A stretch of DNA of 51,578 nt from Candidatus Ozemobacteraceae bacterium (GCA_035373905.1 DAOSOK010000013.1:1-51578); one strand, 5' to 3'; shown: positions 19,823-41,072, counted from the stretch's first letter. Notes: a model not told the origin generated them from the letters alone. Translations and numbers: made by a program.

Positions 19823-20608
19823 TCAGCCGACGGCGGCCTCTTCGACGGAGTCTGCGGCCGATACCGGCCTGATCGTGATGGGCGAGAAGTTGTCGGCCTG
19901 GGCGATGTCGCACTCGCCAAGCTTGAACATCTCGAGGATGGCCATGAAGGAAAGAACGACGTCGTAGCGGTCCTTGCGGCCGCGGACGAGCTCGTTGAAC
20001 GGAATTTCCCGCCGGTGGCGCAGATCGTTGAGGACCCGGCGGATCTCGTCGATTCGCGCCTCGAGGCCGATGCGGTCGACGACGACGCGATGGATCGGCG
20101 GATTCAGGCGCCGGCGGACCAGCCCCTCATACAGCGCGCGCAGATCGAACGCAGAGAGATTGATCTGGAGGATCTGCTCGGGCTGGAGTTCGTAACTGCC
20201 CGCCCGGGTGTAGATGCGCGAGTTTTTCCGCTCCATCTCCCGCAGATCGAGGGCCATGAGTTTGAAACGGCGATACTCGACGAGTTTGTCGACGAGCTCG
20301 CGACGGGCGTCTTCCTCGTAGGGAGCGGCATCGAGGTCCTCGTCGCCGGTCTCGATCTCGCCGGCCTGGGGCTTGTCGCGCGGAAGGAGCATGCGCGATT
20401 TGATCTCGAGCAGGGTCGCCGCCATGACGAGAAAGCCCGAGGCCACTTCCATGTCGAGAATCTCCATCATGTGAAGGTAGTCGAGATATTGGGCCGTAAT
20501 GGTTGAGATCGGAATATCGTAGATGTTGACCTTCTGCTCTTCGATCAGGTGATACAACAGATCGAAGGGGCCCTCGAAGGCCGGGAGACGTACCTGGTAT
20601 GCGCTCAT
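19823..20608 (-). CDS. scpA: Segregation and condensation protein A.
   Basis: The N-terminus YQVRLPAFEGPFDLLYHLIEEQKVNIYDIPISTITAQYLDYL is typical of ScpA. Confidence 0.85.
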   Translation of the reverse strand: MSAYQVRLPAFEGPFDLLYHLIEEQKVNIYDIPISTITAQYLDYLHMMEILDMEVASGFLVMAATLLEIKSRMLLPRDKPQAGEIETGDEDLDAAPYEEDARRELVDKLVEYRRFKLMALDLREMERKNSRIYTRAGSYELQPEQILQINLSAFDLRALYEGLVRRRLNPPIHRVVVDRIGLEARIDEIRRVLNDLRHRREIPFNELVRGRKDRYDVVLSFMAILEMFKLGECDIAQADNFSPITIRPVSAADSVEEAAVG

Positions 20609-24566: not shown

Positions 24567-25304
24567 TCAGAAGCCGAAGTTGGCTCCCAGGGAATACCTG
24601 CTTTCGGTGTTGAGATTGTCCGGAGCAAGATACCCGAAATCGATCGCGAGCGCATCACTCAAGTGATGTCGAAGCCCAATGAGAAAATCGTTGCCGGCGT
24701 AGTCCATGATCAGCTGGGTCTCGGGATCGAGATTGAGATTTGCCCCGAGAACGAAGAACAGCGGGTCAACAGGCGAGAACTTGTCCGGATACCTGCCGAA
24801 ATGGGCGTATTTTTCGGTGCCCTCCATGGCCAGGTTCGCCCCGAGCCCAACCACGACGCGGTTTCCCGGCAAGCCCGTCAGCACCATCACCGAATCTTTC
24901 CAACCGTCGGTCGTGTCGATCACGGCGGCGGCGGCAACGTTTGGGCGGAGTTTATATTTGGCCGCAAACACCGGGTCGAACTGGCTCTTTCCCGAGCCCG
25001 TGACGAACCGCTTCATGACAGCGATTTCGGTGTCGTCGGAAAACGCGAACACGCCTTTGAGCGAGCCGACGCGGTCGACGCCGTCGCCCCCGTTGATATG
25101 CGCCGCCGCCCTCGCCCCGCCCGGTGGCAGGACATCGAGGCCCGGAACGAGCATGGTGCCCGAAAGGCCGCACAGGGTCGCATCGTCGGCCTGCTGCGCC
25201 GCCACGGGCGACGCGGGCATCGCAAATAACGCGGCGGCCAGCGCAAAGCCGGCCGCCTTCGATACGAACGAGCGAATGATGTTCGATGAGCTAATCGCTT
25301 TCAA
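24567..25304 (-). CDS. Outer-membrane beta-barrel protein.
   Basis: Signal peptide, alternating amphipathic strands, and C-terminal ...YSLGANFGF with a terminal Phe. Confidence 0.6.
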   Translation of the reverse strand: MKAISSSNIIRSFVSKAAGFALAAALFAMPASPVAAQQADDATLCGLSGTMLVPGLDVLPPGGARAAAHINGGDGVDRVGSLKGVFAFSDDTEIAVMKRFVTGSGKSQFDPVFAAKYKLRPNVAAAAVIDTTDGWKDSVMVLTGLPGNRVVVGLGANLAMEGTEKYAHFGRYPDKFSPVDPLFFVLGANLNLDPETQLIMDYAGNDFLIGLRHHLSDALAIDFGYLAPDNLNTESRYSLGANFGF

Positions 25305-26541
25305 GCTGGTTCAACCTTTCCCGAACTTTGTCAGCCTCAGCATGATCGGGAAATCGCTTCAGGAACTCAGAGTACTGTTTCTTGGCTTCATCATTGTCTT
25401 TCAGCTGAGTCCGGTACAGATCTCCCTTGCGCATCAAGGCCTCAGCCGATACATCGGCATCCGGGTATCGTTCCGTGAGCCTGTCGTAATAATCGATCGC
25501 CTTACGGGCCCCCTCGTCGTTCTTGCGATATCTCACGGTGCCATCGACAACGCGTGTCTTGTAGTCGGTGAGGTTCTCCTCGTAGATGCGGCCGAGCTTG
25601 AAGAGGCTCTGATCAGCGTTCGGAGCGTCCGGAAACTTCTGCATCATTTCTTCGAGGGTGGCGGCGGCGTTCTTGTAATCCTTCTGCTTTTCGTCCATCA
25701 TGCTCGCCATCAGCCTGTAGGCATCGCGAGCCAGATCGGAGTTCGGGGAATCTGCGATGACCTTCCGATAGGCCTCGATCGCTTTCGCGTAGTCTCCCTG
25801 TTTTGCATGCATGGCGGCGAGGTCCATGTTGGCCTGAGCGCTCTGGGCTTCCGACTGTGCGGCTTCGGCGATGTTTTCCTGCGCCTCGATCGCCGCGACG
25901 CTCTGGCCGGTGCCAGGAGCGAGGGCCTTCATCCGCTTCTGGGCCTCCCGGAAAAAGGAGCTGTACGGGTGTTTTTCGACGAGTTCGCGGTACATTCGCG
26001 CCGCATCCTCGAATTTTCCGGTGCGCTCGTAGGAGAAAGCGAGGTGGTAGACGACTTTGTCGATCGACATGAAGTTCGGGTATTCGGATAAAACGCGCGC
26101 ATACGCATCGATGGCCTTCGGATAATCATTCAGGCGCTCCTCGTAGACCCTGCCGAGATCGTACAGAATCCGGGGCGAGTCCGGCCCCTTCACACCGCCG
26201 GCCTTGACGCCCTCCGACATGTTCGTCGCGGCGTCGAGGAAATGACCGAGCGCCTGCGACATCTCATTCTCGGCCTGGCGCATCCGGATCGTTCCGATTT
26301 CGACACGGGCGGCGGCCGCGAGTTCGGGGTTTGAAAAAAGGTTCTGGAGGGCACCGATCGCACCGTCGAAATTGGACTGGGCAAGAAGTTGCTGCGCCTG
26401 CTGGTATTCTCCGGTCATCTGGATTGCGGCGTTCTGGCCGGCGGCCGGGGCTCCCCCCCCTGCGCTCCAGAGCGAGCAGGCTGAGATCAGCACGGCGACG
26501 ACCGCGTCGCGACGGATTCGAACGGGAAAGGAGAGAATCAT
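25291..26541 (-). CDS. TPR-repeat lipoprotein (BamD/YfiO-like or Tol-Pal YbgF/CpoB-like).
   Basis: Signal peptide with Cys (LISAC). Repeated TPR-like helices carrying Y...A...Y motifs throughout. Confidence 0.55.
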   Translation of the reverse strand: MILSFPVRIRRDAVVAVLISACSLWSAGGGAPAAGQNAAIQMTGEYQQAQQLLAQSNFDGAIGALQNLFSNPELAAAARVEIGTIRMRQAENEMSQALGHFLDAATNMSEGVKAGGVKGPDSPRILYDLGRVYEERLNDYPKAIDAYARVLSEYPNFMSIDKVVYHLAFSYERTGKFEDAARMYRELVEKHPYSSFFREAQKRMKALAPGTGQSVAAIEAQENIAEAAQSEAQSAQANMDLAAMHAKQGDYAKAIEAYRKVIADSPNSDLARDAYRLMASMMDEKQKDYKNAAATLEEMMQKFPDAPNADQSLFKLGRIYEENLTDYKTRVVDGTVRYRKNDEGARKAIDYYDRLTERYPDADVSAEALMRKGDLYRTQLKDNDEAKKQYSEFLKRFPDHAEADKVRERLNQLESD

Positions 26542-26710: not shown

Positions 26711-27583
26711 GTGCCAGGAACAAATGCCGATATACCGAACGGCGGAGTTACTCATCGGGTTGAAACTCCCGGCTTGATCTTCGATCTGCTACCGATCGAA
26801 AAGGTCGCACCCAACCCGAAGCAGCCCCGCAAGATCTTTGACCGCACCACCCTTGAAGAGCTTGCCCAGTCGATCCGTGCGAACGGCGTTCTCCAGCCGA
26901 TTCTCGTCAGACGCTGGGGCGACGGGTATCAGATCATCTCCGGCGAGCGGCGGTATCAGGCCTGCAAGATCGCCGGCCTGACGCAGATTCCCGCCGTCCT
27001 CCGCGACATGAACGAACAGCAGACCCTCCTTGCTGGCCTGATCGAAAACATCCAGCGGGAAGACCTGAATCCCGTAGAAGAGGCGGCGACGCTCCGGCAG
27101 ATTATCCTGGAGTTCGGGTTGACGCACGACGAACTGGCCCGGCGGCTCGGAAGAAGCCGTTCCGCCCTCACGAACCGCCTGCGGCTGCTCTCGCTCCCGG
27201 GTCACGTCCAGCAACTCATCGCGAGCGGAAAGATCTCCGCCGGCCACGCCAAGATGCTGGCAGGGCTCCGCGATCACAGCGAGGTCCAGGCCTGGGTCGA
27301 CCGGATTCTTACCAAGAGCCTCTCGGTATACGAAACGGAAAAGGAACTGGCCGATGCGAAGCCGTCCGGAAACGGGCACCCGGGAAACAGGTCTCGAGCT
27401 TCGGCACCCCGGAAGCAGGCCGGCGATATCCATGTCCGCCAGGTCGAATCACGCATCCAGGAACTGCTCGGCGCCAAGGTACACATCCGGCAGGGCCGCG
27501 CCAAAAGCCGGATCGAGATAGAATTCTATAGCAATGAAGATTTGGAACGAGTCGTAGACATGCTGCTGACCCTTCGCCAGTAA
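26711..27583 (+). CDS. parB: ParB/Spo0J-family partition protein, full length with ParB-box, HTH and C-terminal dimerisation regions; there is no adjacent canonical ParA.
   Basis: LQPILVRR...YQIISGERRYQACKIAGLTQIPAVLRDMNEQQTLLAGLIENIQREDLNPVEEA. Candidate TTGACA-N17-TAGGTT about 60 nt upstream. Confidence 0.85.
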   Translation: MPGTNADIPNGGVTHRVETPGLIFDLLPIEKVAPNPKQPRKIFDRTTLEELAQSIRANGVLQPILVRRWGDGYQIISGERRYQACKIAGLTQIPAVLRDMNEQQTLLAGLIENIQREDLNPVEEAATLRQIILEFGLTHDELARRLGRSRSALTNRLRLLSLPGHVQQLIASGKISAGHAKMLAGLRDHSEVQAWVDRILTKSLSVYETEKELADAKPSGNGHPGNRSRASAPRKQAGDIHVRQVESRIQELLGAKVHIRQGRAKSRIEIEFYSNEDLERVVDMLLTLRQ

Positions 27584-27641: not shown

Positions 27642-28529
27642 GTGTATATAAAATTCTGGGGTGTCAGAGGATCCGTTCCCGTTCCCGGGAAAGATACGAT
27701 CCGCTATGGCGGAAACACGACCTGTATTGAGATTCGCACGAATGAAGGCCAGCTGATCATCGTCGATGCCGGGACGGGCATCCGTCTTCTCGGTCTCGAG
27801 CTTCTCAAGGGTGATTTCGGCAAGGGGAAGGGCGTCGCGCACATTCTCTTCACCCACTCCCACTGGGATCACATCCAAGGTTTTCCCTTCTTTCCGCCCG
27901 CGTATATCGGCTCGCGCGACGCGTCCGGCGCCCGCGTCGACGGCTCATGCAACACGCTTCATCTGTACGGCGCATCGGACGTCGACGATCGCCTCGAAGC
28001 GACGCTGCGCGGCCAGATGGAACACTTCTACTTCCCGGTCGATCTCAACACCCTGAGCGCCAAACTCACCTTCAATCCCATGCAGGGAAAGCCGATCGAT
28101 ATCGGCGCGGCGCAGATTTCATCCCGCCGTCTCATTCACCCGAACGGCGTGCTCGGGTATCGCATCCAGGACGGCGACAGCAGCGTCGTCGTGGCGACGG
28201 ACTGCGAACATCCGTCGGACGGCTCGATCGATGCGAATCTTCTCGAACTTGCCACCGGAGCCGACCTCCTGATTTACGACGCACAATATACCCCCGAGGA
28301 ATACAACCCCGCGGCCCACGGAAGCCGCGGCCCGAGCAAAATCGGCTGGGGTCATTCGACGATGGTCGAAGGCGCGAAGCTCGCAAAGACCGCCGGCGTG
28401 AAGCACTTGGTTCTCACTCATCACGATCCCCTTCACAACGATGTCGCGATCGATGCGATCGAGAAGCGTGCCAAATCCGAGTTTCCGTCTTCCCAGGCGG
28501 CGTTTGAGGGGCTCGTCATTCAGATCTGA
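27642..28529 (+). CDS. MBL-fold metallo-hydrolase (PhnP/YycJ/RNase-Z-like).
   Basis: HxHxDH motif ILFTHSHWDHIQGF; downstream ATDCEH and LTHHD metal ligands. Confidence 0.75.
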   Translation: MYIKFWGVRGSVPVPGKDTIRYGGNTTCIEIRTNEGQLIIVDAGTGIRLLGLELLKGDFGKGKGVAHILFTHSHWDHIQGFPFFPPAYIGSRDASGARVDGSCNTLHLYGASDVDDRLEATLRGQMEHFYFPVDLNTLSAKLTFNPMQGKPIDIGAAQISSRRLIHPNGVLGYRIQDGDSSVVVATDCEHPSDGSIDANLLELATGADLLIYDAQYTPEEYNPAAHGSRGPSKIGWGHSTMVEGAKLAKTAGVKHLVLTHHDPLHNDVAIDAIEKRAKSEFPSSQAAFEGLVIQI

Positions 28530-28586
28530 TTCTTCCCGGTACCCCCTGTTTCACGACGAACCGGGGTGTGCTACTATTGGGGCGAC

Positions 28587-31500
28587 ATGGGCAGCACCCC
28601 GTTCCTCACACCCGTTTTCCTTTTCGGCTCGATTCGCGGCGGTTCAGGCAAATCGAGCATCGTCGCCCATCTCTCGGTTTACCTCCAGTCGAAAAGCCGA
28701 CGAGTCGCGGTCATCGACGCCAATGCCCCGTTTCCGAACCTTTTCCGCAGCGTTCTCCCCCGTTCCGTCTCACTCGAATGCTACACTGACCTGACGGACC
28801 TGGTGGTCGAGGGGTCGTCGCGGTTCAGACGCACATTCGTTTTCACCGCCACGGACAAGATTTCGTATTTTCCCGCGTTCAAGCTGAAAGACCCGGTGCG
28901 CCTGCTGTCGGATGCTTCCCTCCGCGACTTTTTCCTCCAGCTCCGATCGCACTTCGACGTCGTGCTGATCAACCTGCCGCCCGGCTGCGACAATTTCGTC
29001 GTCGCCGAGACATTCCTGCAGAGACGCGGGAACGATGCGGGGGCACCGGCCGCCGTCCTGGTCACGACGACCGACGTGCGAAGCCTGGCGTTGCTGGACT
29101 CGATGCTCAGGTCCCGGCCGGCGTTGTTTCATTTCGCGCGCGAACGGCTCATGTTCGTCTACAACATGCTTCCGCGCGGCATCGAAGATACGACGATCGA
29201 ACGGGCGCGCCTCAACTGGAACGAGACCCGGCGGTTGTTCCGGCTTCCGATCTCTCTCGGCATATCGATGATCGACGAGTTCGAGGCGCAGGCGAAAGCC
29301 GCCTTGCCCCTCGTCACCCAGGAATCCTCGCTCATCCGGCAGACGATGGCGACCCTGTCAAGAACGCTGTCGGACGTCGCGGAGGGCCAATGGCAAGGAG
29401 ATCCCCCCAAAGGGGAGGCCGACGAGTTCGCCCCCTGTCTCGACAGCTTTCTCCTCGAGCGGCTGAACCGGCACATCGAGCCCCTGCAGAACATTCTCGC
29501 CCGCCGTCTCTGCACGCACGGAGCTATTATATCATCTTTTATAGAATCAAGCGCATCCGCCTACCGCTTTCGTCTTCGCCTTTCCGGCATCGGCCGCCGA
29601 AGCCTCCCGCCGATCCTCGACCTCCACTTCCCGGCCTTCAAGACCGAGCGCGGCGGAAGAATCCCTCCACGATTCACCCTCGATCCCGAATTCGCGCCGC
29701 CGCCGGAGTCCGCTCTCGAGCAGGAGGAACGGCCGTCCATTTCCGCGAAACCGCTGTATCATTTCGACGACCGGTTCGCTTCGAGATGCCGGTTCGATAT
29801 CTTTTCAGAAACTTCTTTTTCCTGGCTCGACGCCATGTCGGACAGGAACCCTGAATGGCGGGGCTACATCGCGCCCTCGGATCTTCCATCCCTTACCCGG
29901 CTTCTCGGGTTTCAGAAGAATCTGCGGAAGCAGGATGCGTTTCTCTTCCAGCGCATCGAGTTCGCTCCGGAGATCAGGCCCTCGCTGATCTCGACGGAGT
30001 TCAACCTCTGCACGTCGTTTTCCTGCCGCGCAGCTTTTCCATGGCTGTTTGACGACCGTCTCCGCGCCGCTCCGGCGAGCGTCGGCCACGTCGCGCTCGA
30101 CATCCCCTCGCGCGAGGCTCTCTCCGTCCCCGCCGGGCCGGATGCGTATCTCGAACTTCCGGGGTTCGTTCGAACGAACCTGGCGCTCATCGCCAGCATC
30201 GTCCCGAAGTCCGAAGACGAGGACCGCGTCACCCGCCAGATACGCGCCGGTATTCACCCGCGCCGAGAGCTGGCCCCCTCCGCCCCCCCGCAACCGCGCT
30301 CGTATCCGCCCGAAACGCGGGCATGTGCGACTCCGGAGCTCACCCCGTTCGAAGCCCGGCGGTCCTCCTTCGCTCTCAGACTTGGCGTTCTGCTGGCCGA
30401 CTTCTCGGCCCTCCCTCACGACACCTCCTTCCTGACCGACGAGATCTGCGCCGGGTTCGAGAAATTCCAGACCGACGCGGCTTTCCAGATACGCCTTCGC
30501 CGCCGGAAACGCCTTGCCTTTCCGTCGACGTCTCCGCTGCCGGGCGAACTCGCCCTCGGATCGATCCCGACTCCGTCCCGCAACCTCCCGATCGCTCCCG
30601 GCCTCGGCCTTTCCCTGCCCCAAACCTTCGGAATAGATTCCGACTCGATCCACGCGCGCGATTCGGCACCTCTCCCGGAATTCATCGGCCGCCTCTTTTT
30701 CGAACCATCGCTCCAACGCGCCGTTCCAATCCCCCCCCCTCCATTCCGCCTGCCACGCCGCTTCGGCATGGCCCCCTTCCTGATCGAACTGACTCTGCCG
30801 CGGATCGCCTGGGGAGACCTTCCCTACCGGGTCGCGGTTCAGGAGACCTCTTCCCGCCCCTCTCCGGCTTCGCTGGATTTCGCCGCCGGCCTCGAAATAT
30901 ACGATTATCTATTCAAACAAGGCATTTCCGGCATATCCCTGCTGAAGAGGCCTCCCAGCATTTCCGTGTTTTTCAAGCCGATGACCTGGTCGTTCAGGAA
31001 CCTCGAGTATGCTCCCGTCACGCGCCGCCCGTTCGACACCCGGAGCGTTTTCCCGGCTGCCTGGAGCCCGGGGAAAATCGCGCAGTATGCCGGTTTCCAG
31101 AGGCTCCAGTCCGGCTCATTCGCCGTCATCGACGTCGACTGCACCGACCACGTGAAACTGCTCAGGCTGCCTTTCCTCCAGCTTCTGGCGCCTTCCGCCC
31201 CCACGAACGCCGCATCATGGGTGTACGGAACCGTCGATGTCGCCCCCGTCCGCGATCCGGCCGTTCCTTCGGAATGCGAGTTCTGGAACCTCTACGAGCC
31301 GGACAACCAGTTTCCCCTTCCGGATTTCGGAAAGCGCCCGGGTCTCGTCTCGTCGGGGCCCATCGTCAGCACCGCAATGCCGCCCCTCTCCACCCCAAAC
31401 CCAGGGCTATGCATATTCGCGTTCGACATCCGCGAGTTCGCCCCTCCCGGGTATCAGCCTCCGGAAACCGCCATCAGCATTCTTTCGGAACCCTACACGA

Positions 31501-32195
31501 TCCTCACGACCCTCCCCTCCTGCCTCGAACCGGTTTCCCCGCGTCGACCACTCTCCATCGGCGAGCGCTGGCTCCTCGTCCGGGCGGCGGCGTGGAACGA
31601 TTCCGCAACGCGCATCCGGCTTCTCGAGCACATGCCGGCCCGATTGAAGTCCCCCACGCTCGACATCATCAAGCCGTATTCGCGGCCGGCTCTCCCTCTG
31701 CCGCCGGTCAGCCCCGAGCCGACCTGCGCCCAGCCTCCCATGCCCCCCAGAACGGATTTTCGGAAGCCATACAGGCACCCCGACCCCGCGATTCTTTTCA
31801 CGCCTGCTTCGCCGGGCCCGCTCCTCAAGAAAGTGTTCCCGCTCGAACTCCTGGCACGACGTTCGAAACTCCCCTACTCGATGGTATCCGGAATCGACAT
31901 GCTGTATGCCTGTCTCATGGATCGCGCCCGAAGATCCCTGTATGGGCCGATCGAGCACAGGCAAACAAAAATCGTCCAACCGCCCCGATTCTGGCGCGAC
32001 ACGCTCGCCGTCTCCAATCCGCCGAAGAAGGCTTCCGCCCACGATATTGACGTGTTCTTCTCCTGCCCCGACCGCATTCATGAGAAAATCGTCCGAAGGC
32101 AGGCGATCCTCGGCTCCCGCGTCACGGGGCTGCTGGAAGCCATCAAACTAACCCAGGCTTCGGTGGATCGCCTCTCTTCCAGCACCCCGTCATGA
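28587..32195 (+). CDS. Giant protein: an N-terminal MinD/ParA-superfamily deviant Walker-A ATPase of about 230 aa, fused to a Pro/Ser/Leu/Phe/Arg-rich region of about 950 aa with no recognisable domains.
   Basis: Deviant Walker A FGSIRGGSGKSSIVAHLSVYL...VAVIDAN. Walker B-like FDVVLINLPPGCDNF. A MinD-like VLVTTTDVRSLALLDSML segment. GC3 of about 80% in this frame over the whole length. The ORF is open from GTG 28566; the ATG at 28587 is preferred. Confidence 0.7.
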   Translation: MGSTPFLTPVFLFGSIRGGSGKSSIVAHLSVYLQSKSRRVAVIDANAPFPNLFRSVLPRSVSLECYTDLTDLVVEGSSRFRRTFVFTATDKISYFPAFKLKDPVRLLSDASLRDFFLQLRSHFDVVLINLPPGCDNFVVAETFLQRRGNDAGAPAAVLVTTTDVRSLALLDSMLRSRPALFHFARERLMFVYNMLPRGIEDTTIERARLNWNETRRLFRLPISLGISMIDEFEAQAKAALPLVTQESSLIRQTMATLSRTLSDVAEGQWQGDPPKGEADEFAPCLDSFLLERLNRHIEPLQNILARRLCTHGAIISSFIESSASAYRFRLRLSGIGRRSLPPILDLHFPAFKTERGGRIPPRFTLDPEFAPPPESALEQEERPSISAKPLYHFDDRFASRCRFDIFSETSFSWLDAMSDRNPEWRGYIAPSDLPSLTRLLGFQKNLRKQDAFLFQRIEFAPEIRPSLISTEFNLCTSFSCRAAFPWLFDDRLRAAPASVGHVALDIPSREALSVPAGPDAYLELPGFVRTNLALIASIVPKSEDEDRVTRQIRAGIHPRRELAPSAPPQPRSYPPETRACATPELTPFEARRSSFALRLGVLLADFSALPHDTSFLTDEICAGFEKFQTDAAFQIRLRRRKRLAFPSTSPLPGELALGSIPTPSRNLPIAPGLGLSLPQTFGIDSDSIHARDSAPLPEFIGRLFFEPSLQRAVPIPPPPFRLPRRFGMAPFLIELTLPRIAWGDLPYRVAVQETSSRPSPASLDFAAGLEIYDYLFKQGISGISLLKRPPSISVFFKPMTWSFRNLEYAPVTRRPFDTRSVFPAAWSPGKIAQYAGFQRLQSGSFAVIDVDCTDHVKLLRLPFLQLLAPSAPTNAASWVYGTVDVAPVRDPAVPSECEFWNLYEPDNQFPLPDFGKRPGLVSSGPIVSTAMPPLSTPNPGLCIFAFDIREFAPPGYQPPETAISILSEPYTILTTLPSCLEPVSPRRPLSIGERWLLVRAAAWNDSATRIRLLEHMPARLKSPTLDIIKPYSRPALPLPPVSPEPTCAQPPMPPRTDFRKPYRHPDPAILFTPASPGPLLKKVFPLELLARRSKLPYSMVSGIDMLYACLMDRARRSLYGPIEHRQTKIVQPPRFWRDTLAVSNPPKKASAHDIDVFFSCPDRIHEKIVRRQAILGSRVTGLLEAIKLTQASVDRLSSSTPS

Positions 32196-35100
32196 GCCTG
32201 TCGCATCTCGGGAAATTTTCCGAACCCGTTTTCGACGCGGCTCTCCCGGCAAAGCCGACGATTTTCCCGGTCGCCCGCCGGGTCGTCAGCCACGCCGCAC
32301 GGTCGCTGTTCGCCGGAAAACTGCTGTTCCCCGTCGCCATTCCCGGGAAGGAAGGACAGCACTGTTTCGCCTCGGATCCCCGACGCCTTTTCCGCATGCC
32401 GCGCGTGAAACATTCCTCCGTTTCCGTTCTTCCGGCCGTCGTCTCGAGAACGAACCACACGTTCGCCCCGCCGCCTCACGCTCAGATCCAGCCCCGACAG
32501 CGACTCGACTTCTCTCCATGCAAACTTCCGCCTCGCCCCGAGCTGCGGCCCCGCGCCCCCGCCTCAATCGGCGCACCGGTCCTCTCTCTCGCGGAAGCGT
32601 GCGCGCAGCCGTCCATCCGCCTCTCCCGGCCTCCCGTGAAGAACCTCAGGGAGCCGCTGTATTTCCAGAAATGCCTCATCTCCCGCTTCGAGATTTCCCG
32701 TCTTCGCCGGATGGCGCAGGCATCCGACTGGCAGTCCGTCTCGAAACCGCCTGCGGATCTCGTTCCTGCGTCGCCCCTGCCGGAACCATGGAATTGGTTC
32801 GCTCTTTCGGCGCGGGGCCGGGCCGACCGTTCATCAGTCATGACACGCCCCCTGCAGGCCGGTCCTCTCGATCCTCCCCGGCCCCGGCTTCTCTACCCGA
32901 CCGCAACGCGAAGGCCGTCCCTCATGCCCCCCCTCTGGAAATTCCTTGCGCACGGCCGGCACGCCGTTTCCGCCTGGCGGCCTGTCTGCCGTCTGCCGAC
33001 CGGGCCTCTCTCCATCCTGTCGTTGCAGAGGCGGCTTCCTTTCGCGGAGCTCCTTCCCGAAGGTCCTCCCCCGGCACCGATAGACAGGGATGTATATCTA
33101 TCTATATATATTTCGGACGCTCTTTCCATCCGGCCCCATTCTTTCATCGCGGAATTTTCTCACGGCCGAAGCCGGGTTCGGCCGGCGGCCCACTCCGGCA
33201 TCGCTCCGGTTTTTCATCCCGACGCTCGCCTCGCCGCCCCGACCGCCCACTCGGGAACCGTGACGGAGATCATCACGAATATCGCCCGCGCACGTCTTGC
33301 CGACATCCGGGGTGTTCCGCCGGCCCGACTGGCCAGGAAATGGCCTCACGCCGTCTTCCGACCGCTTCGGCAACTTTTGTTCCGCAAGCCGTTTGCGAAG
33401 CGCTTCGATTTCCCCCCCCCTGAACCACCCGGATTCAACGTCATCGCGCCCAGATCATTCGCTTCTCTCCGCCCCGTCAGCGGAGATCTCCGCGCGGCAA
33501 TGAAGAATGAACCAGACGCCGCCAGAGCGAAGCCCGCCGAGCGGCGCTCCCGCAGTTCGTTCAGCCATTCTCCGATGGAGCGTTTCCTGGCGAAGACCGG
33601 ACTTCATCTTCCCGACGCCCGCGTGTCCGATCTCCGCATCTCCGCCATTCAGCCGGCTCCCGTGATGTGCCCCGGCGGCGCGACCCGCAAGGGCGTCAGA
33701 CAAGCGCTCGGCATGCCCGAACGCCGTGCCGTCGCCGAAAAGGCCCTGTTCACTCCGAGAGAAAAGCAGCGCACGACGTTCAGGACATCGGCCGTTCCCG
33801 CGCAACCCAACGTTCACGCTTCAGAACTTCGCGTTCCCGTTCCCGCCATGCAGGTGCTGTGCCTGACCGCCGCTCCTCGCGGCCCCAGGCCTCTTGCGCT
33901 TCCCAGACGCCTCCCGCCCGCCGGCGAGCCTGAACGCATGCTCAGACTCATCGCCTCGCTTCCCCGCAGAGCCCATTCGACAAGGCATTACCTGCTGACG
34001 CTCGAATCGAACCTCATGCCCTGGAAGCAACGTTCACAGCCCCGACGCACCCGGGTCGCCCTGCCCAGAGAGCTCCTGGTTCCTCGCTCGCCCTCCTTCG
34101 CCAGGGAAGTCATGCTCCCCCAGGATTTCCAAGCGGTTTCACCCGCCTCGAAACGCGCCTTTCTCACCACGGGCATCAGCACGGCCTTTCTCTCTCTCCG
34201 CGAAGCCGCCCTGCCGGCTTCCCTCCGCATCGCGCACGACCGGCCCCGCCTTTCACCGACGCCATCGCCACCCCCGACGTCCGTTGCAGGGGCCCGGTTT
34301 CTCGACGCCCCCGAATGGATTCGCCCCGCCCGCCAGCCCAGAATGAAAATCCGTTACTGGCCCACATTCTATGAACTCTCGCCCACGACGCCGGCCGTCG
34401 GCATGCGGCTTTCGGAACTCGGCCGCGCCGCCCTGCCGCCGGCCCCGGCGTCACGAGCGATCGCATCCCTCGCCGGCGTCTTCGGCATCAGACGGCGCGA
34501 TCGCCCCCGCGGCCCGTACAGCATGCGACAGCCGAAACGCTGGCTTTTGAAGACGAACGCGGCCGCGATCGGCGTTCCCGACGTCTGCCTCCACGAAATG
34601 GCTCTTCCAACGACCTCCCCGTCGAGACTCGACTCGGGCGAGCGTCACCCGCCCGCCTTCATGGGCCCGGCGTTCCGCGCCCCCTGGACGTCGGTCGTCA
34701 TCAGACCGGAGGAGCTCCGTCAGTTCGTTGCGGAACCCGCGGCCCCCCCGCCCCCCGAGCGGCTCCCGCACTGCAGGGCCACGACACGGCCGGCCACCGA
34801 GCCCGCCCTCTCGTTCCAGGAGGCGCCGATGCCCCGCGTCATTACGACCGCGAGACTTTCCCCTCTGTCTCCTCCCGGAGAGACGTTCGTCATCAGCTTC
34901 GGCCCCCAATCCTTCAGACCGGTCGGCCCCGCCGTATCCGGCGCTCGATGCGAACCGCCCGGTGAAGTCCGGCTCGACTCCCTGCGAATCATCGAACCGT
35001 TCGTCGAACTCCGGCCGGATCTTTTCGCCGACGAGTTCGGGGAACCGGCGGCAGGCGGCGGCTTCTTCATCCGCGACCTTCTCTGCGATCTCATCGTCGT

Positions 35101-36235
35101 CCGCGGCGATCACTATGCACGCTGGCGAAGCCTTTTTTTCCCGTACAAGCCCGACGTTCGAGGCCTCGGCGACGTATCCGACGCTCCGCTCGAGCCGACG
35201 CCCGAATCCTTCATGCAAACCCTGCTCGACGGAATGGGACCGCTCGAACTCGCTCCCGGCATTCTCGCCATGCGGCGGGAGCATGAGGAGCCTCCGACGG
35301 TAAGAGACGAAAAAGTACCTTTCCCGTTTGCTCCGGGACATCTCCGCGCCGAACCCTTCAGCAGACTTCCCGTCCTCTTGTCAGACGTCTTCGGATTCGA
35401 CATCCTCGAGGCTCCGGCCGCGCCGGCCGAGGAATGGGATTTTTCGACATCGATGTATGTGCCGTTCATCCCGGCTCCCCTGCCGAACATCCTACCGCGT
35501 GAGGACGGCCTCGCAGCCGCCTCGTCTCCGTTCCCTCAATCTTTTTCGGAGCCGGTTCCGTCCGTTTCCTGGCCCCGCCGGCATCCCGCGGTATCCGAAG
35601 CATTCCCGTCGCTCGAACAGCCCGGCAATCATGCGATCATCATCGCCGGTCGATGGAACCGCAAACTTCCCGTCGACGGCGGGTTCCGTGTGCGCCACTC
35701 GATATCATCCCCAACGCTGTTTTCCGGCGTTCACCGGCTGGAACTGCCTGCTCTTCCCCCAGAGGCTTTCCAGGCCTTGCACATCGTCGATCTCGCACCG
35801 GCCACAATCGTCTGTCACACGTTGCTGAATCCCGTTGCATCGCCTGCGGCGCGACTGGCGACTCCAGCGTCTTCCGGTCCAAGCATTCCGTCGGACACGG
35901 TTTCGGCATCTCGCACGGCCGTCCTTCCGTTCGCGCGGCCGTTGCTCCATTTGCCTGCCGGGCGGTACAGGCAGCACGAGGTTTCGGGAGTTGGCGCAGG
36001 CAGACGGATTTCCTTCCGGAAACAGGAGTTCGGCTTCGCCCTTTCCCCCATCGGCGTCTTTCCTTCGCTGGCCCTGCCGATGCTCGAACGAAAGGAGCGG
36101 CGGTGTTCCTCGAAGTTCAAAATCTCCATTCCCGGAAAGGCAGCCGTTCATCCGGCCGCGATTCCCGACTGGGTGGAGCTGTCGTCCGCACGACCGGCGT
36201 GCAGACCTCCGGCCGGCCTACAAACACCTACATGA
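32192..36235 (+). CDS. Second giant (1347-aa) Pro/Ala/Arg/Ser/Leu/Phe-rich protein with no recognisable domain; its start overlaps the stop of the preceding gene (ATGA).
   Basis: A 4-kb uninterrupted frame with coding-type third-position GC bias. Its composition matches the tail of the preceding protein. The antisense ORFs across it are Arg/Gly-rich GC-shadow ORFs. Confidence 0.65.
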   Translation: MSLSHLGKFSEPVFDAALPAKPTIFPVARRVVSHAARSLFAGKLLFPVAIPGKEGQHCFASDPRRLFRMPRVKHSSVSVLPAVVSRTNHTFAPPPHAQIQPRQRLDFSPCKLPPRPELRPRAPASIGAPVLSLAEACAQPSIRLSRPPVKNLREPLYFQKCLISRFEISRLRRMAQASDWQSVSKPPADLVPASPLPEPWNWFALSARGRADRSSVMTRPLQAGPLDPPRPRLLYPTATRRPSLMPPLWKFLAHGRHAVSAWRPVCRLPTGPLSILSLQRRLPFAELLPEGPPPAPIDRDVYLSIYISDALSIRPHSFIAEFSHGRSRVRPAAHSGIAPVFHPDARLAAPTAHSGTVTEIITNIARARLADIRGVPPARLARKWPHAVFRPLRQLLFRKPFAKRFDFPPPEPPGFNVIAPRSFASLRPVSGDLRAAMKNEPDAARAKPAERRSRSSFSHSPMERFLAKTGLHLPDARVSDLRISAIQPAPVMCPGGATRKGVRQALGMPERRAVAEKALFTPREKQRTTFRTSAVPAQPNVHASELRVPVPAMQVLCLTAAPRGPRPLALPRRLPPAGEPERMLRLIASLPRRAHSTRHYLLTLESNLMPWKQRSQPRRTRVALPRELLVPRSPSFAREVMLPQDFQAVSPASKRAFLTTGISTAFLSLREAALPASLRIAHDRPRLSPTPSPPPTSVAGARFLDAPEWIRPARQPRMKIRYWPTFYELSPTTPAVGMRLSELGRAALPPAPASRAIASLAGVFGIRRRDRPRGPYSMRQPKRWLLKTNAAAIGVPDVCLHEMALPTTSPSRLDSGERHPPAFMGPAFRAPWTSVVIRPEELRQFVAEPAAPPPPERLPHCRATTRPATEPALSFQEAPMPRVITTARLSPLSPPGETFVISFGPQSFRPVGPAVSGARCEPPGEVRLDSLRIIEPFVELRPDLFADEFGEPAAGGGFFIRDLLCDLIVVRGDHYARWRSLFFPYKPDVRGLGDVSDAPLEPTPESFMQTLLDGMGPLELAPGILAMRREHEEPPTVRDEKVPFPFAPGHLRAEPFSRLPVLLSDVFGFDILEAPAAPAEEWDFSTSMYVPFIPAPLPNILPREDGLAAASSPFPQSFSEPVPSVSWPRRHPAVSEAFPSLEQPGNHAIIIAGRWNRKLPVDGGFRVRHSISSPTLFSGVHRLELPALPPEAFQALHIVDLAPATIVCHTLLNPVASPAARLATPASSGPSIPSDTVSASRTAVLPFARPLLHLPAGRYRQHEVSGVGAGRRISFRKQEFGFALSPIGVFPSLALPMLERKERRCSSKFKISIPGKAAVHPAAIPDWVELSSARPACRPPAGLQTPT

Positions 36236-36298: not shown

Positions 36299-37081
36299 AT
36301 GAATTTTATCTCCATGTATGACAAAGGCATGGTCCGACCAAACAACGAGGACTACACAGAGAGTTTCCAGTGGAACTGGTGCAGTTGCACGGGCGTCCAG
36401 GAGTCGTTCACGGCTCTCATCGTGGCAGACGGCATGGGCGGCGCCGCCGCCGGCGAGTATGCATCCTCGCTCGCCGTGAAAACCATCAAAGAGAAGCTCC
36501 AGGCCAGTCTCCTGTCGGACAACGTCGAGGCCGTCCTCGCGGGGGACCTTCGGGAAGCGCTGGCCGGCTACTGCAAAGAGGCGAACGCGGCGATCTATTC
36601 CAAGGCCCAGGCGAACCCTGAGATGGAGGGCATGGGAACGACAATCGTCATAGCTATTATATGTCGTGATATGCTCACGCTGTGCCACGTGGGTGACAGC
36701 CGCTGCTACATGCACCGGGAAAACCGCCTGAAGCGTCTCACCCGAGATCATTCTCTCGTTCAGGAGTTGATCGACGCAGGCAAGATCGCTCCCGACCAGG
36801 CGGAAAAGCATCCGAACAAAAACGTGATCACACGGGCGCTCGGCGTAGCCGCAACGGTCGAGCCGGAGTGTTCACGGCTTCCGATTTTCACGGGGGACGT
36901 CCTGGTCCTCGGGAGCGACGGTCTGTGCGGCTTCGTGGACGAACACACGATCAAGGACATGGTCGAGAAGCAGGCTTCCCAGCCCAACGCGAATCTCAAG
37001 CAACTCGCCCAGAACCTTATCGAGTGCGCCAACATGAACGGAGGCGCCGACAATATTTCCGTCTGCCTCTATCGCCACTGA
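36299..37081 (+). CDS. PP2C-family Ser/Thr protein phosphatase (Stp1/PrpC-like, cytoplasmic).
   Basis: RPNNEDY, ALIVADGMGGAAAGEYAS, TLCHVGDSRCY, LVLGSDGL and GGADNISV motifs. GAGAGGAAG ribosome-binding site upstream. Confidence 0.85.
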   Translation: MNFISMYDKGMVRPNNEDYTESFQWNWCSCTGVQESFTALIVADGMGGAAAGEYASSLAVKTIKEKLQASLLSDNVEAVLAGDLREALAGYCKEANAAIYSKAQANPEMEGMGTTIVIAIICRDMLTLCHVGDSRCYMHRENRLKRLTRDHSLVQELIDAGKIAPDQAEKHPNKNVITRALGVAATVEPECSRLPIFTGDVLVLGSDGLCGFVDEHTIKDMVEKQASQPNANLKQLAQNLIECANMNGGADNISVCLYRH

Positions 37082-37103: not shown

Positions 37104-38879
37104 ATGACCGATCCGCGGGATACCCGACACACATCCGGTCCCGATCGAAGCGTCGAGGATATGGACGCGCTCGCCCGCGAAATCGACGAACTCGCGAGAC
37201 AGCGCGAGCGGATCTTCCAGGCGCTGAAGCCGACCTCCGCACCAGCCGCCGCAGGCCTTGCCGAGCGCGCCGATCGGCTCGAGGCCGAAAACCGGCAGCT
37301 GAAGGAGCGGATCACCGCACTCGCCGAGTCGAGTTCCGGCCCCCTGGCCGACAAACTTCGAAGAACCGAGGAACTTCTCGAGGAGCGCACGCACGAACTC
37401 CAGCAGATGCGCCTGCAGAGTGCGTCCGAAGCTGCCCTTCTCGAGGAGATGAAGAAGCAGAATGCCGAGATCGAGCGGCTCAAAGCCCGGCTGTCCGAAG
37501 CCGACAAGGAGAAGCCCGATATTGCGGCACTCCAGGACGAACTCCGGAGGCTGAAGCTCAACCTCGCCGACGCGGTTCTCGAGCAGAAGCAGGCCGGCGC
37601 CACGAGCCAGGAGCTCCTGAAGCAGATTTTCGAGCTCAAGCAGGAGGTGTTCCAGCACCAGTCGCAGGTCAGGGACCTCACTGCACGACTCGATCTGAGC
37701 AAGCGGAACGAACAGGCCCTTTCCGAGCAGGAAAAAAAGCAGCAACTCGAACTCGCCGCCCTCCGCGCCGCGGTCGAGGAGTCGGCCCGGCAGATAGACA
37801 GACTGCAAGAGCAGACCCAAAGTCTCTCCGCCGAACGCGAGAAGGCCCTGGAGGAACTCGAGAAGGCACGCGCCGCCGCCGCCGAGTTCCAGACGGCGTT
37901 CACGAACCTCAAGGCGGAATACGAAGCCGAGAAGATCCAGCGGCAGGCGGCCGAAACCCGCGAGCATGAGATCGTGACGTCGTTCGACGCGATCAATCAG
38001 GAACGCCTGCTCCTCAAGGAAAAAGTCTCGCGGCTTCTCGTCGGCGTCAAGGCGTATATCACCCCGCCGTCGCGGCCCGCATCGTCGACGCCCGAGGACG
38101 GGGCCCTCGAGCCCAAGGAGATGCGGCCCTACATCCCCTTCTGCTTCCCCGACCGTCTCCCTGCGCAACTGCGCCCCCACTGGAAACGGACAAAGCGCCT
38201 TCCGCTCGTCACGCCGCCGGGAAGCCTGGTCACCGTTCGTATGGACGAGTTCAACAGACCGATTCGCAAACCGTTGCTGCAGACATACCGGTTCCGCGAG
38301 CTGGTGTGCCCGCCGACCTCGGCCCTGCCGACCGAGCCATATCTGCATTCCTTCCCCAGAGATTTTTCCATCGTCGCATCTCCTCTCGAATTTTCGTTCG
38401 CGGCGGCCCGATCGTCACATCCGTTCCCGGGGCCGTCGCGGCTCGAGGGCGTCGAACGCCGTTTCCCGCCCAGATCGCCGATCATCGAGTTCTCCGAAAA
38501 AATGGTTGTTCCGCCGATCGAGACGAAGGTTTTCACCACGTCGGTCGCCATGTTTTTCGACTACCTCGCAAGCGACATCATCACCGCGTTCCGGAACAGC
38601 ATGTACCGCCTCGGATACCGGTATCCGGCAGGTTCTTCCCCTCGGGAACTCATGTTCGGCCCCGAAACGAAAACGATCTCATCGGGAAGGGTTGCCTTAC
38701 ACACCACTTCTCATCTACAATTCGCGTTGCGTTACCCGGTACGCACGGAACTGCCCCCGCGATTCCCGCAGGACCGGCTCAAATATCTGCTGCGAACGAT
38801 CGGAGACTCGCTCTCTTCCATGATGGCCCGGCTTGACGACAACGAACCCGACGACGACTCGGAACCCAAACGAACGTAA
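37104..38879 (+). CDS. Coiled-coil protein (about 310 aa of heptad-rich helix) with a Pro/Phe/Arg-rich C-terminal half.
   Basis: Long runs with the character E..L...L..E...L between residues about 20 and 330. The C-terminal composition matches the giant proteins. It starts 22 nt after the PP2C stop. Confidence 0.65.
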   Translation: MTDPRDTRHTSGPDRSVEDMDALAREIDELARQRERIFQALKPTSAPAAAGLAERADRLEAENRQLKERITALAESSSGPLADKLRRTEELLEERTHELQQMRLQSASEAALLEEMKKQNAEIERLKARLSEADKEKPDIAALQDELRRLKLNLADAVLEQKQAGATSQELLKQIFELKQEVFQHQSQVRDLTARLDLSKRNEQALSEQEKKQQLELAALRAAVEESARQIDRLQEQTQSLSAEREKALEELEKARAAAAEFQTAFTNLKAEYEAEKIQRQAAETREHEIVTSFDAINQERLLLKEKVSRLLVGVKAYITPPSRPASSTPEDGALEPKEMRPYIPFCFPDRLPAQLRPHWKRTKRLPLVTPPGSLVTVRMDEFNRPIRKPLLQTYRFRELVCPPTSALPTEPYLHSFPRDFSIVASPLEFSFAAARSSHPFPGPSRLEGVERRFPPRSPIIEFSEKMVVPPIETKVFTTSVAMFFDYLASDIITAFRNSMYRLGYRYPAGSSPRELMFGPETKTISSGRVALHTTSHLQFALRYPVRTELPPRFPQDRLKYLLRTIGDSLSSMMARLDDNEPDDDSEPKRT

Positions 38880-38933: not shown

Positions 38934-41072
38934 ATGAAACGCACGTATCTGCAGGACGAGGCGAACACCCACTACAACCTCGGTATCGCCTATTACACGA
39001 AGGGACAGTATGAACTGGCCATCTCGGAGTGGATCCAGTCGCTGATCAAGAATCCGCAGAACGGCGAGGCGCGCTTCAAGCTCGGCGTCGCCTACTACCA
39101 GCTCAACCGCATCGACGAAGCCCTGAAGGAATGGGAGATGGCGGTGCAGCTCGACCCGCGCAACTTCGAGGTGCTGCACAACCTCGGCATCGCCTACTAC
39201 AACAAGGGCGACGACTCGAAGGCGATCGAGAATTGGGAACTCTGCCTCGAAATCAAGCCGCAGGATCCCGAGATCCATTTCAAGCTCGGTATCGCCTACT
39301 ACAACCTCGGCAAGGAAGACCGCGCCATCACGCTCTGGGAAAAGGGCACCAACCTCAACCCCGAGGATTCCGACATCTTCTTCCGGCTCGGCGTCGCCTA
39401 TTACAACAAGGGCCTCGACGACAAGGCCGTGCTCTCGTTCTCGAAGGCGATCGAGCTGAACCCCAAGAACTCCGAGGCGCACAACAATCTCGCCATCGTC
39501 TACTACCGCCTCGAGATGTACCCCCAGGCCATCGACGAGTGGAAGAAGGCGCTCGCGCTCAGCCCGCGCCAGCCCGAGATCTACAACAATCTCGGCAACG
39601 CCTACAGCAAGCTCAATCAACACCGGGAGGCGATCGAGATCTGGCAGAAGATCCTCGAGATCACGCCGCAGAACGCCGAGGTGCTGTTCAAGCTCGGCTC
39701 GGCCTACGGCAAGCTCGACGATCTCGACAAGGCCATTGAATACTGGAGTCAATGTATCTCCGTCAACCCGAACGACATCGAGGCGCAGTTCAACCTCGGC
39801 GTCGCGTTTTACAATAACGGCAACTTTAAAAAGGCCATCACCTACTGGAACACCGTCCGCGAGAAGCGCAGCGAGGACGCCGACATCTGCGAGAAGATCG
39901 GCAACGCCTACTGCGGCCTCGAGGACTTCGCCGAGGCGGCAAAGTTCTGGAACCGCGCCGTGTCCTACATGCCCGACGACGCGCAACTGCACCACAAGCT
40001 CGGCATCGCCTATTCCAAGCTGAACAAGACCCAGGAGGCGATCTTCCAGTGGCAGAAGTCGGTCGAGCTCGACCCGAACCACTTCGAAGCGCACCACAAT
40101 CTCGGCATCGCCTTCTACAACCTGCAGCGGTTCGACGAGGCCCAGAAAGAGTGGGAAAAGGCCCGCGAGCTGAGCGGCAACGACCCCGACATCTACTTCA
40201 AGCTCGGCCACGCCTACCGCCAGAAACGCCGCCTCGACGAGGCGATCGCCTCCTGGAAGAAGGCGATCGAGCTCGATCCGAGCAACTCGAACGCCCACTT
40301 CGTGCTCGGCAACGTGTATGACGAGAAGGGGCTGATCGACGACGCCATCCTCTCGTGGCGGCGCGTCGTCGAGCTGTCGCCGAACGACATCGACGCGCAC
40401 AACAACCTCGGCATCGCCTACTTCCAGAAGAACCTGTTCGACAAAGCCATCGCCGAGTGGGAGGACGCGATCCGCATCACCCCCGAGAACGGAGAGCTGT
40501 ACAACAAGCTCGGCATCGCCTACATCAAGATGGACCTGTTCGACAAGGCCGTCGAGTGCTGGGAAAAGGCCCTCAAATACAAGCCCGAGGACGCCGACAT
40601 CCTCTCGAACCTCGCGACCGCCTACCACAACCGCGAGATGTACGACAAGGCGATCGACATCTGGAAGCGCGTCATCAAGTACAACCCGCAGGACGCCGAG
40701 GCCCGCAACAAGCTGGGCATCGCCTACTACAACAAGGGCATGTACGACCAGGCGATCGAGCTGTGGAAGAAGGCGATCGAGCTCAACCCGAAGGACGCCG
40801 CCGCCTACTACAACATCGGCACCGAGGAGTTCGAGAAGGGTCGTATAGCGGAAGCTATAACAGCCTTCCGCAAGGTGCTCGAGATCGACCCGAAGTTCAA
40901 CCAGGTGCATTACAACCTGGCGATCATCTACGCGCGCAAGCGCCAGTTCGGCGACGCCGTCGAGTCGGCCCGCCGCTACCTGCAGATCAGCCCGACGGGC
41001 GTCGAGGCCGACAACCTGAAAACCCTGATCGACCAGTGCGAGCACGAACTGGAGCAGAACGCCGAGGTCTGA
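38934..41072 (+). CDS. TPR protein with about 20 very regular tandem 34-aa repeats.
   Basis: Reiterated consensus A..NLGIAYYNKG..D.AIE.W.KA.EL.P...E across 712 aa. Confidence 0.85.
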   Translation: MKRTYLQDEANTHYNLGIAYYTKGQYELAISEWIQSLIKNPQNGEARFKLGVAYYQLNRIDEALKEWEMAVQLDPRNFEVLHNLGIAYYNKGDDSKAIENWELCLEIKPQDPEIHFKLGIAYYNLGKEDRAITLWEKGTNLNPEDSDIFFRLGVAYYNKGLDDKAVLSFSKAIELNPKNSEAHNNLAIVYYRLEMYPQAIDEWKKALALSPRQPEIYNNLGNAYSKLNQHREAIEIWQKILEITPQNAEVLFKLGSAYGKLDDLDKAIEYWSQCISVNPNDIEAQFNLGVAFYNNGNFKKAITYWNTVREKRSEDADICEKIGNAYCGLEDFAEAAKFWNRAVSYMPDDAQLHHKLGIAYSKLNKTQEAIFQWQKSVELDPNHFEAHHNLGIAFYNLQRFDEAQKEWEKARELSGNDPDIYFKLGHAYRQKRRLDEAIASWKKAIELDPSNSNAHFVLGNVYDEKGLIDDAILSWRRVVELSPNDIDAHNNLGIAYFQKNLFDKAIAEWEDAIRITPENGELYNKLGIAYIKMDLFDKAVECWEKALKYKPEDADILSNLATAYHNREMYDKAIDIWKRVIKYNPQDAEARNKLGIAYYNKGMYDQAIELWKKAIELNPKDAAAYYNIGTEEFEKGRIAEAITAFRKVLEIDPKFNQVHYNLAIIYARKRQFGDAVESARRYLQISPTGVEADNLKTLIDQCEHELEQNAEV

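Follow-up and report, generated by a model that had tools for sequence, protein, structure and literature searches.

A giant MinD/ParA-fold protein encoded close to parB in Riflebacteria

What does a MinD/ParA-type domain do at the head of a 1202-residue protein? Bacteria in general position their chromosomes, plasmids, division sites and organelles with ParA/MinD ATPases; almost all of these are small stand-alone proteins, and their hydrolysis cycle drives the patterning. The question is posed by a gene in a 51,578-nucleotide stretch of DNA from Candidatus Ozemobacteraceae bacterium (GCA_035373905.1 DAOSOK010000013.1:1-51578), the whole of which we call the window. The original prediction was of a MinD/ParA-type ATPase with a deviant Walker A motif and a low-complexity tail of some 950 residues. 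We conclude that this giant gene is a real single gene encoding a 1202-residue protein, that the protein is a signature of the uncultured phylum Riflebacteria (Rifleibacteriota) and, from the predicted structure, that residues 1 to ~265 have a MinD/ParA-clade fold; the motifs of this N-terminal domain indicate that it has probably lost fast ATP hydrolysis and would be an ATP-binding switch with little hydrolysis. We put at roughly one in two (about 0.5) the probability of a composite reading, in which a fused MinD/ParA-like latch with little or no hydrolysis organises a large ParB-linked assembly. Within it, the claims of identity are near-certain and those of function are weak.

The gene and its family

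The reading frame is uninterrupted up to a stop codon at 32193-32195. Gene calling opens it at a GTG at 28566; because all homologues begin 'MGST/MG..' or 'MG(S/R/K)..', we take the ATG at 28587 to be the likely start. The open reading frame (ORF) and the homologue starts bear out the start and end that had been assigned to the gene. Its coding strand is C-rich (GC skew -0.1 to -0.25) and therefore poor in stop codons, which accounts for long alternative frames. Two of these, at 30323..32050 (+, 575 amino acids (aa)) and 29805..30716 (-, 303 aa), were considered as genes and rejected as probably spurious on the grounds of the stop-poor C-rich strand and the normal rate of synonymous substitution (dS) in the main frame. 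Across 30000..36000, the coding strand of both this gene and the giant gene that follows it, C-rich codons for Pro, Ser, Leu and Arg give a skew of -0.2 to -0.25.

The strongly negative skew and the long alternative frames would fit an artefact, whether through chimeric assembly or as an ORF arisen by chance in stop-poor DNA, and we give this explanation a negligible chance. Measured in 100-codon blocks against two orthologues (83% and 61% identical), the ratio of non-synonymous to synonymous substitution (dN/dS) is below 1 throughout: the blocks of the ATPase part give 0.01-0.11 and those of the tail 0.10-0.43, with normal dS. The whole protein has no insertion or deletion (indel) relative to the 83%-identical orthologue. 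The full-length ORF was recovered in more than 40 independent assemblies, one of them a complete chromosome (OZ223236.1), and its length is conserved. Because the fusion is kept in homologues, dN/dS is below 1 and dS is normal, a chimera or chance ORF is excluded.

A word-indexed search returned 13 homologues, of ~1190-1209 aa when complete and 83% to about 21% identical, and the ~1200-aa ORF is retained as far as about 17-20% overall identity. An exhaustive profile search with query residues 1-493 (family defined by E<1e-10, clustered at 50% identity) gave 57 family clusters, the complete members of which have 1156-1267 aa with two exceptions, P0042 (1389 aa) and P0038 (1863 aa). In the latter, a segment of the tail seems to have been duplicated internally, the block 'LKDMLW.FRN..FQP' being present twice. 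Beyond the family no match comes before E about 4e-8, at which point unrelated small MinD/ParA proteins and 700-800-aa proteins resembling bacterial tyrosine kinases (BY-kinases) begin. Short family matches were rejected as split genes, since each either runs out at a contig end or has the length that is left when its start position is subtracted from about 1200, and they are thus fragments; a split version of ATPase and tail was never seen among the family members found. The analyses of conservation, Pfam domains and the tail described below used 41 full-length members, and the Walker A counts 38 members with complete N-termini.

A scan of GTDB species representatives gave 21 loci, whose named hosts are Riflebacteria, Ozemobacteraceae or Ozemobacter except for two metagenome-assembled genomes labelled Candidatus Avigastranaerophilus (Melainabacteria; L023 and L026). 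Their copies diverge to the same degree as those of distant Riflebacteria, and in L023, the only one of the two with upstream sequence, the order tetratricopeptide-repeat (TPR) gene, parB, metallo-beta-lactamase (MBL)-fold gene and giant gene is intact. Mis-binning, mislabelling or horizontal transfer may explain these two cases. A description of the family was not found in the searchable literature.

The nucleotide site of the N-terminal domain

AlphaFold2 models residues 6-265 with confidence (predicted local distance difference test (pLDDT) score 80-90), and Foldseek matches this model with E 1e-8..1e-6 to HypB-type Mrp, Cfd1, MinD (TM-score 0.70), BcsQ, Soj and ParA. The best PDB profile matches of the domain are MinD (2.7e-5), Mrp/NBP35, BY-kinase domains (including BceF and CapB) and MipZ. 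In Pfam, PF01656 (CbiA) scores 25.1 bits with the window protein against a gathering score of 25.4, and the ParA/NUBPL, BcsQ and MipZ models score lower; across the family, PF01656 matches 36 of 41 members at E<=0.01 (best 4.5e-9). The window protein falls below the threshold of the curated models for MinD (NCBIfam minD_bact: 23.5, cut-off 212.9), ParA (ParA_partition: 18.6 bits, cut-off 180), BcsQ (PF06564: 18, threshold 21.3; TIGR03371: 22.2, cut-off 157.85) and MipZ (PF09140). The automated NCBI name 'MipZ' carried by the homologue P0006 is unsupported, as PF09140 is below threshold and MipZ is not the closest structural match. The Pfam scan of the family found P-loop families only and no domain in any tail, and NCBIfam likewise.

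The BY-kinase matches allow the idea of an autokinase paired with the co-encoded PP2C phosphatase: proteins of 700-800 aa whose P-loop domain is C-terminal are among the best matches outside the family, BceF and CapB appear in the PDB matches, and the PP2C gene lies in the cluster. We consider this very unlikely. The features of the Wzc/CapB group were looked for, and the giant protein has neither the C-terminal tyrosine cluster nor the membrane activator domain, nor is a BY-kinase its closest fold.

The three motif strings on which the assignment had been based are present at residues 14-24, 123-136 (FDVVLINLPPGCDN, numbered from the ATG at 28587) and 156-171 (VLVTTTDVRSLALLDS). In the first, hidden Markov model (HMM) alignments to 1hyq, 4v03 and 1g3q pair Arg17 with MinD's signature Lys, as had been proposed; the substitution is not invariant in the family, where the position is mostly R, K in two members and otherwise S, H, L, Q or A. 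Gly21-Lys22-Ser23 of the window protein is canonical, and the P-loop Lys is found in all N-complete members, with the Mg-binding Ser/Thr that follows it replaced by Ala (GKA) in about one third of the family. In the Walker A' segment, Asp44 is invariant; Asn46 occupies the position of the catalytic Asp, which is Asn or Ser in close relatives and Asp in most of the distant members. The label 'Walker B region' given to the second string does not hold in full, because Asn129 (28971-28973) sits where the Walker B Asp should be, and it is Asn in 41 of 41 members. Asp171, at the end of the third string, and Asn193 (29163-29165) are invariant in the family, and Asn193 would be the base (adenine)-contacting Asn of MinD-type proteins.

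Both missing carboxylates have roles assigned in related enzymes: the acidic residue of the Walker B motif (B-box) is required for Mg2+ coordination and hydrolysis (PMC9178275), and Ala mutants of the Walker A' catalytic Asp (equivalent to D40 of Soj/MinD) are the classical 'ATP-trap' forms (PMC8684754). The loss of both Asp residues and the occurrence of GKA in about a third of the family make a normally active ATPase doubtful. Of what ATP binding and hydrolysis require, the fold, the P-loop Lys and the invariant Asn193 have been kept and the two Asp residues lost, which goes part of the way towards the refutation set out with the original prediction. From the dN/dS of the domain (0.01-0.09) we infer that the nucleotide pocket has been kept, with the hydrolytic machinery degraded, most strongly in the clade of the window protein itself.

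The giant protein is most like the MinD/ParA-type switches, in a degenerate and scaffold-like form as in BcsQ. It lacks three canonical ParA/MinD features, having Arg where MinD has the signature Lys and Asn where MinD has the catalytic Asp and the Walker B Asp. BcsQ, which keeps the Walker B Asp, is without the P-loop Lys; the giant protein keeps the P-loop Lys but is without the Walker B Asp. There are precedents for change at the signature position: BcsQ has Arg ('RGGVGTT'; PMC9178275), and in McdA the signature Lys is replaced (by S) or relocated, the ATP sandwich dimer being kept (PMC8684754). McdA is unlike the giant protein in being a small, fast ATPase with its acidic residues intact.

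The same residues raise the possibility of a pseudo-ATPase, that is, a P-loop domain that no longer binds nucleotide and only provides a large lineage-specific scaffold with a constitutive module for structure or dimerisation. The loss of the acidic catalytic residues, the loss of the Mg-binding Ser/Thr in about a third of the family and the variable signature position would suit it. Set against this, Gly21-Lys22, Asp44, Asp171 and Asn193 are invariant or nearly so at about 30% identity of the N-terminal part, and the dN/dS of the domain is low, a pattern typical of a maintained ligand site. We favour a switch that still binds nucleotide and regard a pseudo-ATPase as unlikely.

The 940-residue extension

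The fusion of the domain to ~940 further residues is real and conserved, and it is highly atypical for the ParA/MinD family. MinD, with its relatives FleN/FlhG, has about 260 aa and an amphipathic helix directly after the core; in the giant protein, ~900 residues lie between. The conservation profile divides the extension into a conserved middle region (residues 266-475), a variable tail (residues 476-1177) and a conserved C-terminal block. In the middle region, AlphaFold2 predicts a helix at 287-307 and a hairpin at 315-332 ('YRFRLRL', with R327, R329 and R331) at pLDDT 60-72, with the remainder below 50. Short invariant motifs are recognisable in it: FDDRF (393-397), P434, L436 and L440-G441 within SDLPSLTRLLG (431-441), and STEF (469-472) or FFIPxEF.

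The original prediction of a low-complexity tail is not supported. Computed over 60 residues at a time, Shannon entropy comes to 3.6-3.9 bits for the tail and 3.6-4.0 for the ATPase domain, there are no repeats, and of the extension only residues 476-1177 are highly variable. The tail of the window protein has 13.4% Pro and a normal hydrophobic content of about 31% FILVWYM. Pro at 13-16% is confined to high-GC members, which indicates that the make-up of the tail follows the GC content of the genome; in low-GC members Pro falls to 4-6%, and K, N, I and F abound. Every tail checked carries a net positive charge (+13 to +77). Kyte-Doolittle scanning of the tail found no transmembrane segment, and a profile of the full-length alignment gave no significant PDB match outside the P-loop, a match to mL38 at E 0.07 being taken as noise. 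Comparison with hhalign of the tail with the downstream giant protein, of one tail half with the other and of the middle region with the tail gave probabilities below 1% throughout, which argues against a shared origin with the downstream giant and against internal repeats.

What characterises the tail is that its length is kept and its sequence is not. Median pairwise identity is 13%, compared to 32% in the N-terminal part; the tail measures 721 +/- 19 aa and the whole protein 1195 +/- 20 aa. Alignment of tails requires two one-residue gaps in 727 positions at 50% identity and five at 34%, or 0.3-0.7 gap openings per 100 residues. The neighbouring giant gene provides a control from the same five genomes, in which it ranges from 1312 to 1615 aa and the giant MinD/ParA-like protein from 1200 to 1202 aa. 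These tail data speak against a freely expanding and contracting linker and, as judged from sequence, exclude low complexity; the tightly conserved length suggests a spacer or a compact, fast-evolving fold rather than a loose low-complexity linker.

The extension has to be weighed against the version originally proposed, in which an active MinD/ParA ATPase tethers a disordered low-complexity scaffold of ~950 residues. AlphaFold2, run with a 41-sequence alignment, gives residues 331-1174 a pLDDT of 30-40 and no secondary structure; with 9 and then 41 sequences, it produced no confident model past residue ~332 other than a C-terminal helix. This, the lack of a detectable domain, the fast substitution, the short conserved stretches resembling linear motifs and the GC-driven drift in composition are all compatible with disorder. 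However, the entropy of the tail equals that of a folded domain, its hydrophobic content and charge put every member tested on the ordered side of the charge-hydropathy plot, and it is gap-poor at 34-50% identity with a length standard deviation of 19 aa at 13% median identity. The disordered scaffold is thus not established, and the active ATPase at its head is contradicted by the missing catalytic carboxylates; we think this version improbable as a whole. RNase E offers a likeness in architecture, having an enzyme-like N-terminal domain followed by hundreds of fast-evolving residues with short conserved motifs that include an amphipathic helix (PMC4435900). It belongs to an unrelated protein family, and the giant tail is length-invariant and indel-poor. 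A degradosome-type scaffold would be expected to vary in length.

Near its C-terminus the protein has a conserved block with the family consensus [KR]DL[LM]xLARQ..KF.E[IV], predicted by AlphaFold2 to be helical. The block is net positive, and in most members no other stretch of the protein, or hardly any, exceeds it in helical hydrophobic moment (median rank 0.75%).

Gene neighbourhood and possible function

The neighbouring genes are listed with the parts of the giant gene in Table 1. As the exact window protein matched no contig record, gene order was compared using the loci of orthologues. Where there is enough flanking sequence the order is constant: a divergent TPR/BamD-like gene, parB, the MBL-fold gene, the giant gene, the second giant gene, PP2C, the coiled-coil gene and a TPR gene. 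Intergenic gaps within the cluster of the window are 22-63 nt, an operon-like spacing; a scan for terminators and promoters did not exceed shuffled expectation, and no convincing terminator was found between the cluster genes in the window. The ParB protein has the motifs GERRxxA and ENxQRE and an N-terminus that is variable among Riflebacteria; among NCBIfam models it scores highest on Noc, though below the Noc cut-off, and it clears the threshold of the generic ParB model. The MBL-fold gene is the most conserved of the cluster (58-98% identity), with weak similarity to RNase Z and cyclic-nucleotide phosphodiesterases. The second giant protein has no Pfam or NCBIfam match and is not homologous to the tail of the ATPase; its orthologues (1312-1615 aa) conserve an N-terminal 'MSL..PVFD' and a C-terminal 'IPDW.EL'. 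Some 6 kb upstream of parB, the opposite strand carries the genes for ScpA and ScpB, an arrangement shared by related loci, and their presence near parB makes the neighbourhood rich in chromosome-organisation genes. Another gene with the [KR]GGxGK[ST] pattern was found neither in the window nor in any fetched locus, neither minC nor minE was among the called genes of any locus compared, and the cluster contains no bcs genes.

Table 1. Coordinates of the giant gene, its parts and its neighbours in the window
Feature	Position	Strand	Basis or remark
Giant MinD/ParA-like gene	28587..32195	+	1202 aa + stop; ORF, start placed by homologues, dN/dS <1 throughout
MinD/ParA-fold P-loop domain	28602..29381	+	Residues 6-265
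Deviant Walker A, GSIRGGSGKSS (residues 14-24)	28626..28658	+	HMM alignment to MinD structures; family block; pattern match at 28635
Walker A'/switch I, VAVIDAN (residues 40-46)	28704..28724	+	Alignments to 1hyq and 1g3q; family block
Walker B-like strand, FDVVLINLPPG (residues 123-133)	28953..28985	+	1g3q alignment (LIDCPAG vs LINLPPG); family block
VLVTTTDVRSLALLDS segment (residues 156-171)	29052..29099	+	Family block; invariant Asp171 at end
Family-specific conserved middle region (residues 266-475)	29382..30011	+	Conservation profile; no Pfam/PDB match
Variable, length-constrained tail (residues 476-1177)	30012..32117	+	Pro 13%, net basic; no repeats, transmembrane segment or known domain
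Predicted C-terminal cationic amphipathic helix, RVTGLLEAIKLTQASVDRLS (residues 1178-1197)	32118..32177	+	Conserved block; AlphaFold2 helix, pLDDT about 63
ScpB	18959..19795	-	SMC partner
ScpA	19823..20608	-	SMC partner
Divergent TPR/BamD-like gene	25291..26541	-	Upstream neighbour of parB
parB/noc-family gene	26711..27583	+	Pfam ParB_N, HTH_ParB, ParB_C; NCBIfam; two genes upstream of giant gene in all loci with enough upstream sequence
MBL-fold hydrolase gene (295 aa)	27642..28529	+	Between parB and giant gene wherever a locus has upstream sequence
Second giant gene (1347 aa)	32192..36235	+	ATG overlaps stop of giant gene (ATGA)
Stp1-like PP2C Ser/Thr phosphatase	36299..37081	+	Conserved downstream in relatives
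Coiled-coil protein (591 aa; ~590 aa in relatives)	37104..38879	+	Weak matches to SMC coiled-coil segments
All-TPR protein (712 aa)	38934..41072	+	Conserved downstream in relatives

The position beside parB invites another assignment, a functional ParA of a ParABS system that is active, stimulated by ParB, binds the nucleoid and works by a diffusion ratchet, the tail being an accessory. The gene adjoins the parB cluster in all genomes compared, there is no other deviant-Walker-A gene nearby, the fold is that of ParA/MinD, and the net basic tail could bind DNA. Nonetheless, we doubt this assignment. A parA was not found directly upstream of parB, and relative to chromosomal ParA/Soj the order is reversed and interrupted by the MBL-fold gene; the N-terminus of ParB is not conserved; the ParA_partition score is a tenth or so of its cut-off; and the protein, four times larger than ParA/Soj, is without the carboxylates, the Walker B Asp being Asn in every member, the Walker A' Asp being Asn here and GKA occurring in a third of the family. 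MipZ is a P-loop positioning ATPase that interacts with ParB, and the giant protein has a weak Pfam match to it.

We suggest instead that the N-terminal domain could be a nucleotide-dependent dimerisation switch of the MinD/ParA kind, forming an ATP sandwich dimer in which Arg17 would reach across the interface like the signature Lys. With hydrolysis very slow or absent, the domain would act as a natural 'ATP-trap'. Dimerisation might then control or nucleate the assembly or placement of a large structure in which the ~940 residues of the protein's extension would join the giant, coiled-coil and TPR proteins encoded alongside it, and this lineage-specific structure would act with ParB in the organisation of the chromosome, the cell cycle and division. 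Its anchor would be the C-terminal helix, attached either to a partner or, as in MinD, to the membrane.

Several observations weigh against this proposal. The link of the giant protein to ParB is drawn from gene order, and the N-terminus of ParB has no obvious basic 'LG(K/R)GL'-type motif of the kind that stimulates ParA, as judged by comparison with a Spo0J sequence. The frequency of GKA and the variable signature position mean that in at least some lineages the N-terminal domain may be a nucleotide-free pseudo-enzyme. The case for a spacer or compact fold is indirect, as AlphaFold2 gives no structure for 70% of the protein. Finally, the mean hydrophobicity of the C-terminal helix is low; it could resemble the membrane-targeting sequence of MinD, or it could equally be a protein-docking helix.

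A bolder version of the latch can be formulated. In Riflebacteria the canonical ParA/MinD positioning ATPase would have given way to a hydrolysis-dead, ATP-latched MinD derivative, in which a length-invariant spacer of ~900 residues separates the dimerising core from the amphipathic helix that binds the membrane or a partner. With ParB and the second giant protein, this derivative would make up a tether or ruler of fixed length by which the partition complex is joined to the division site or the envelope. We hold this to be unlikely; were it true, it would represent a static, non-ratchet use of the A/D-type ATPase fold.

A phylum-wide conserved member of the ParA/MinD ATPases that is four times larger, is encoded near parB and carries amides where the catalytic carboxylates should be suggests use of the fold as a latch or scaffold and not as a cycling motor. 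Its tail is a clean natural case of a region at ~13% identity that has nevertheless kept its length and its freedom from indels, and so bears on how 'dark' protein regions are constrained. Riflebacteria carry an exceptional load of unknown, lineage-defining genes (PMC10849945), and the giant protein offers a definite place from which to start on the cell biology of the phylum.

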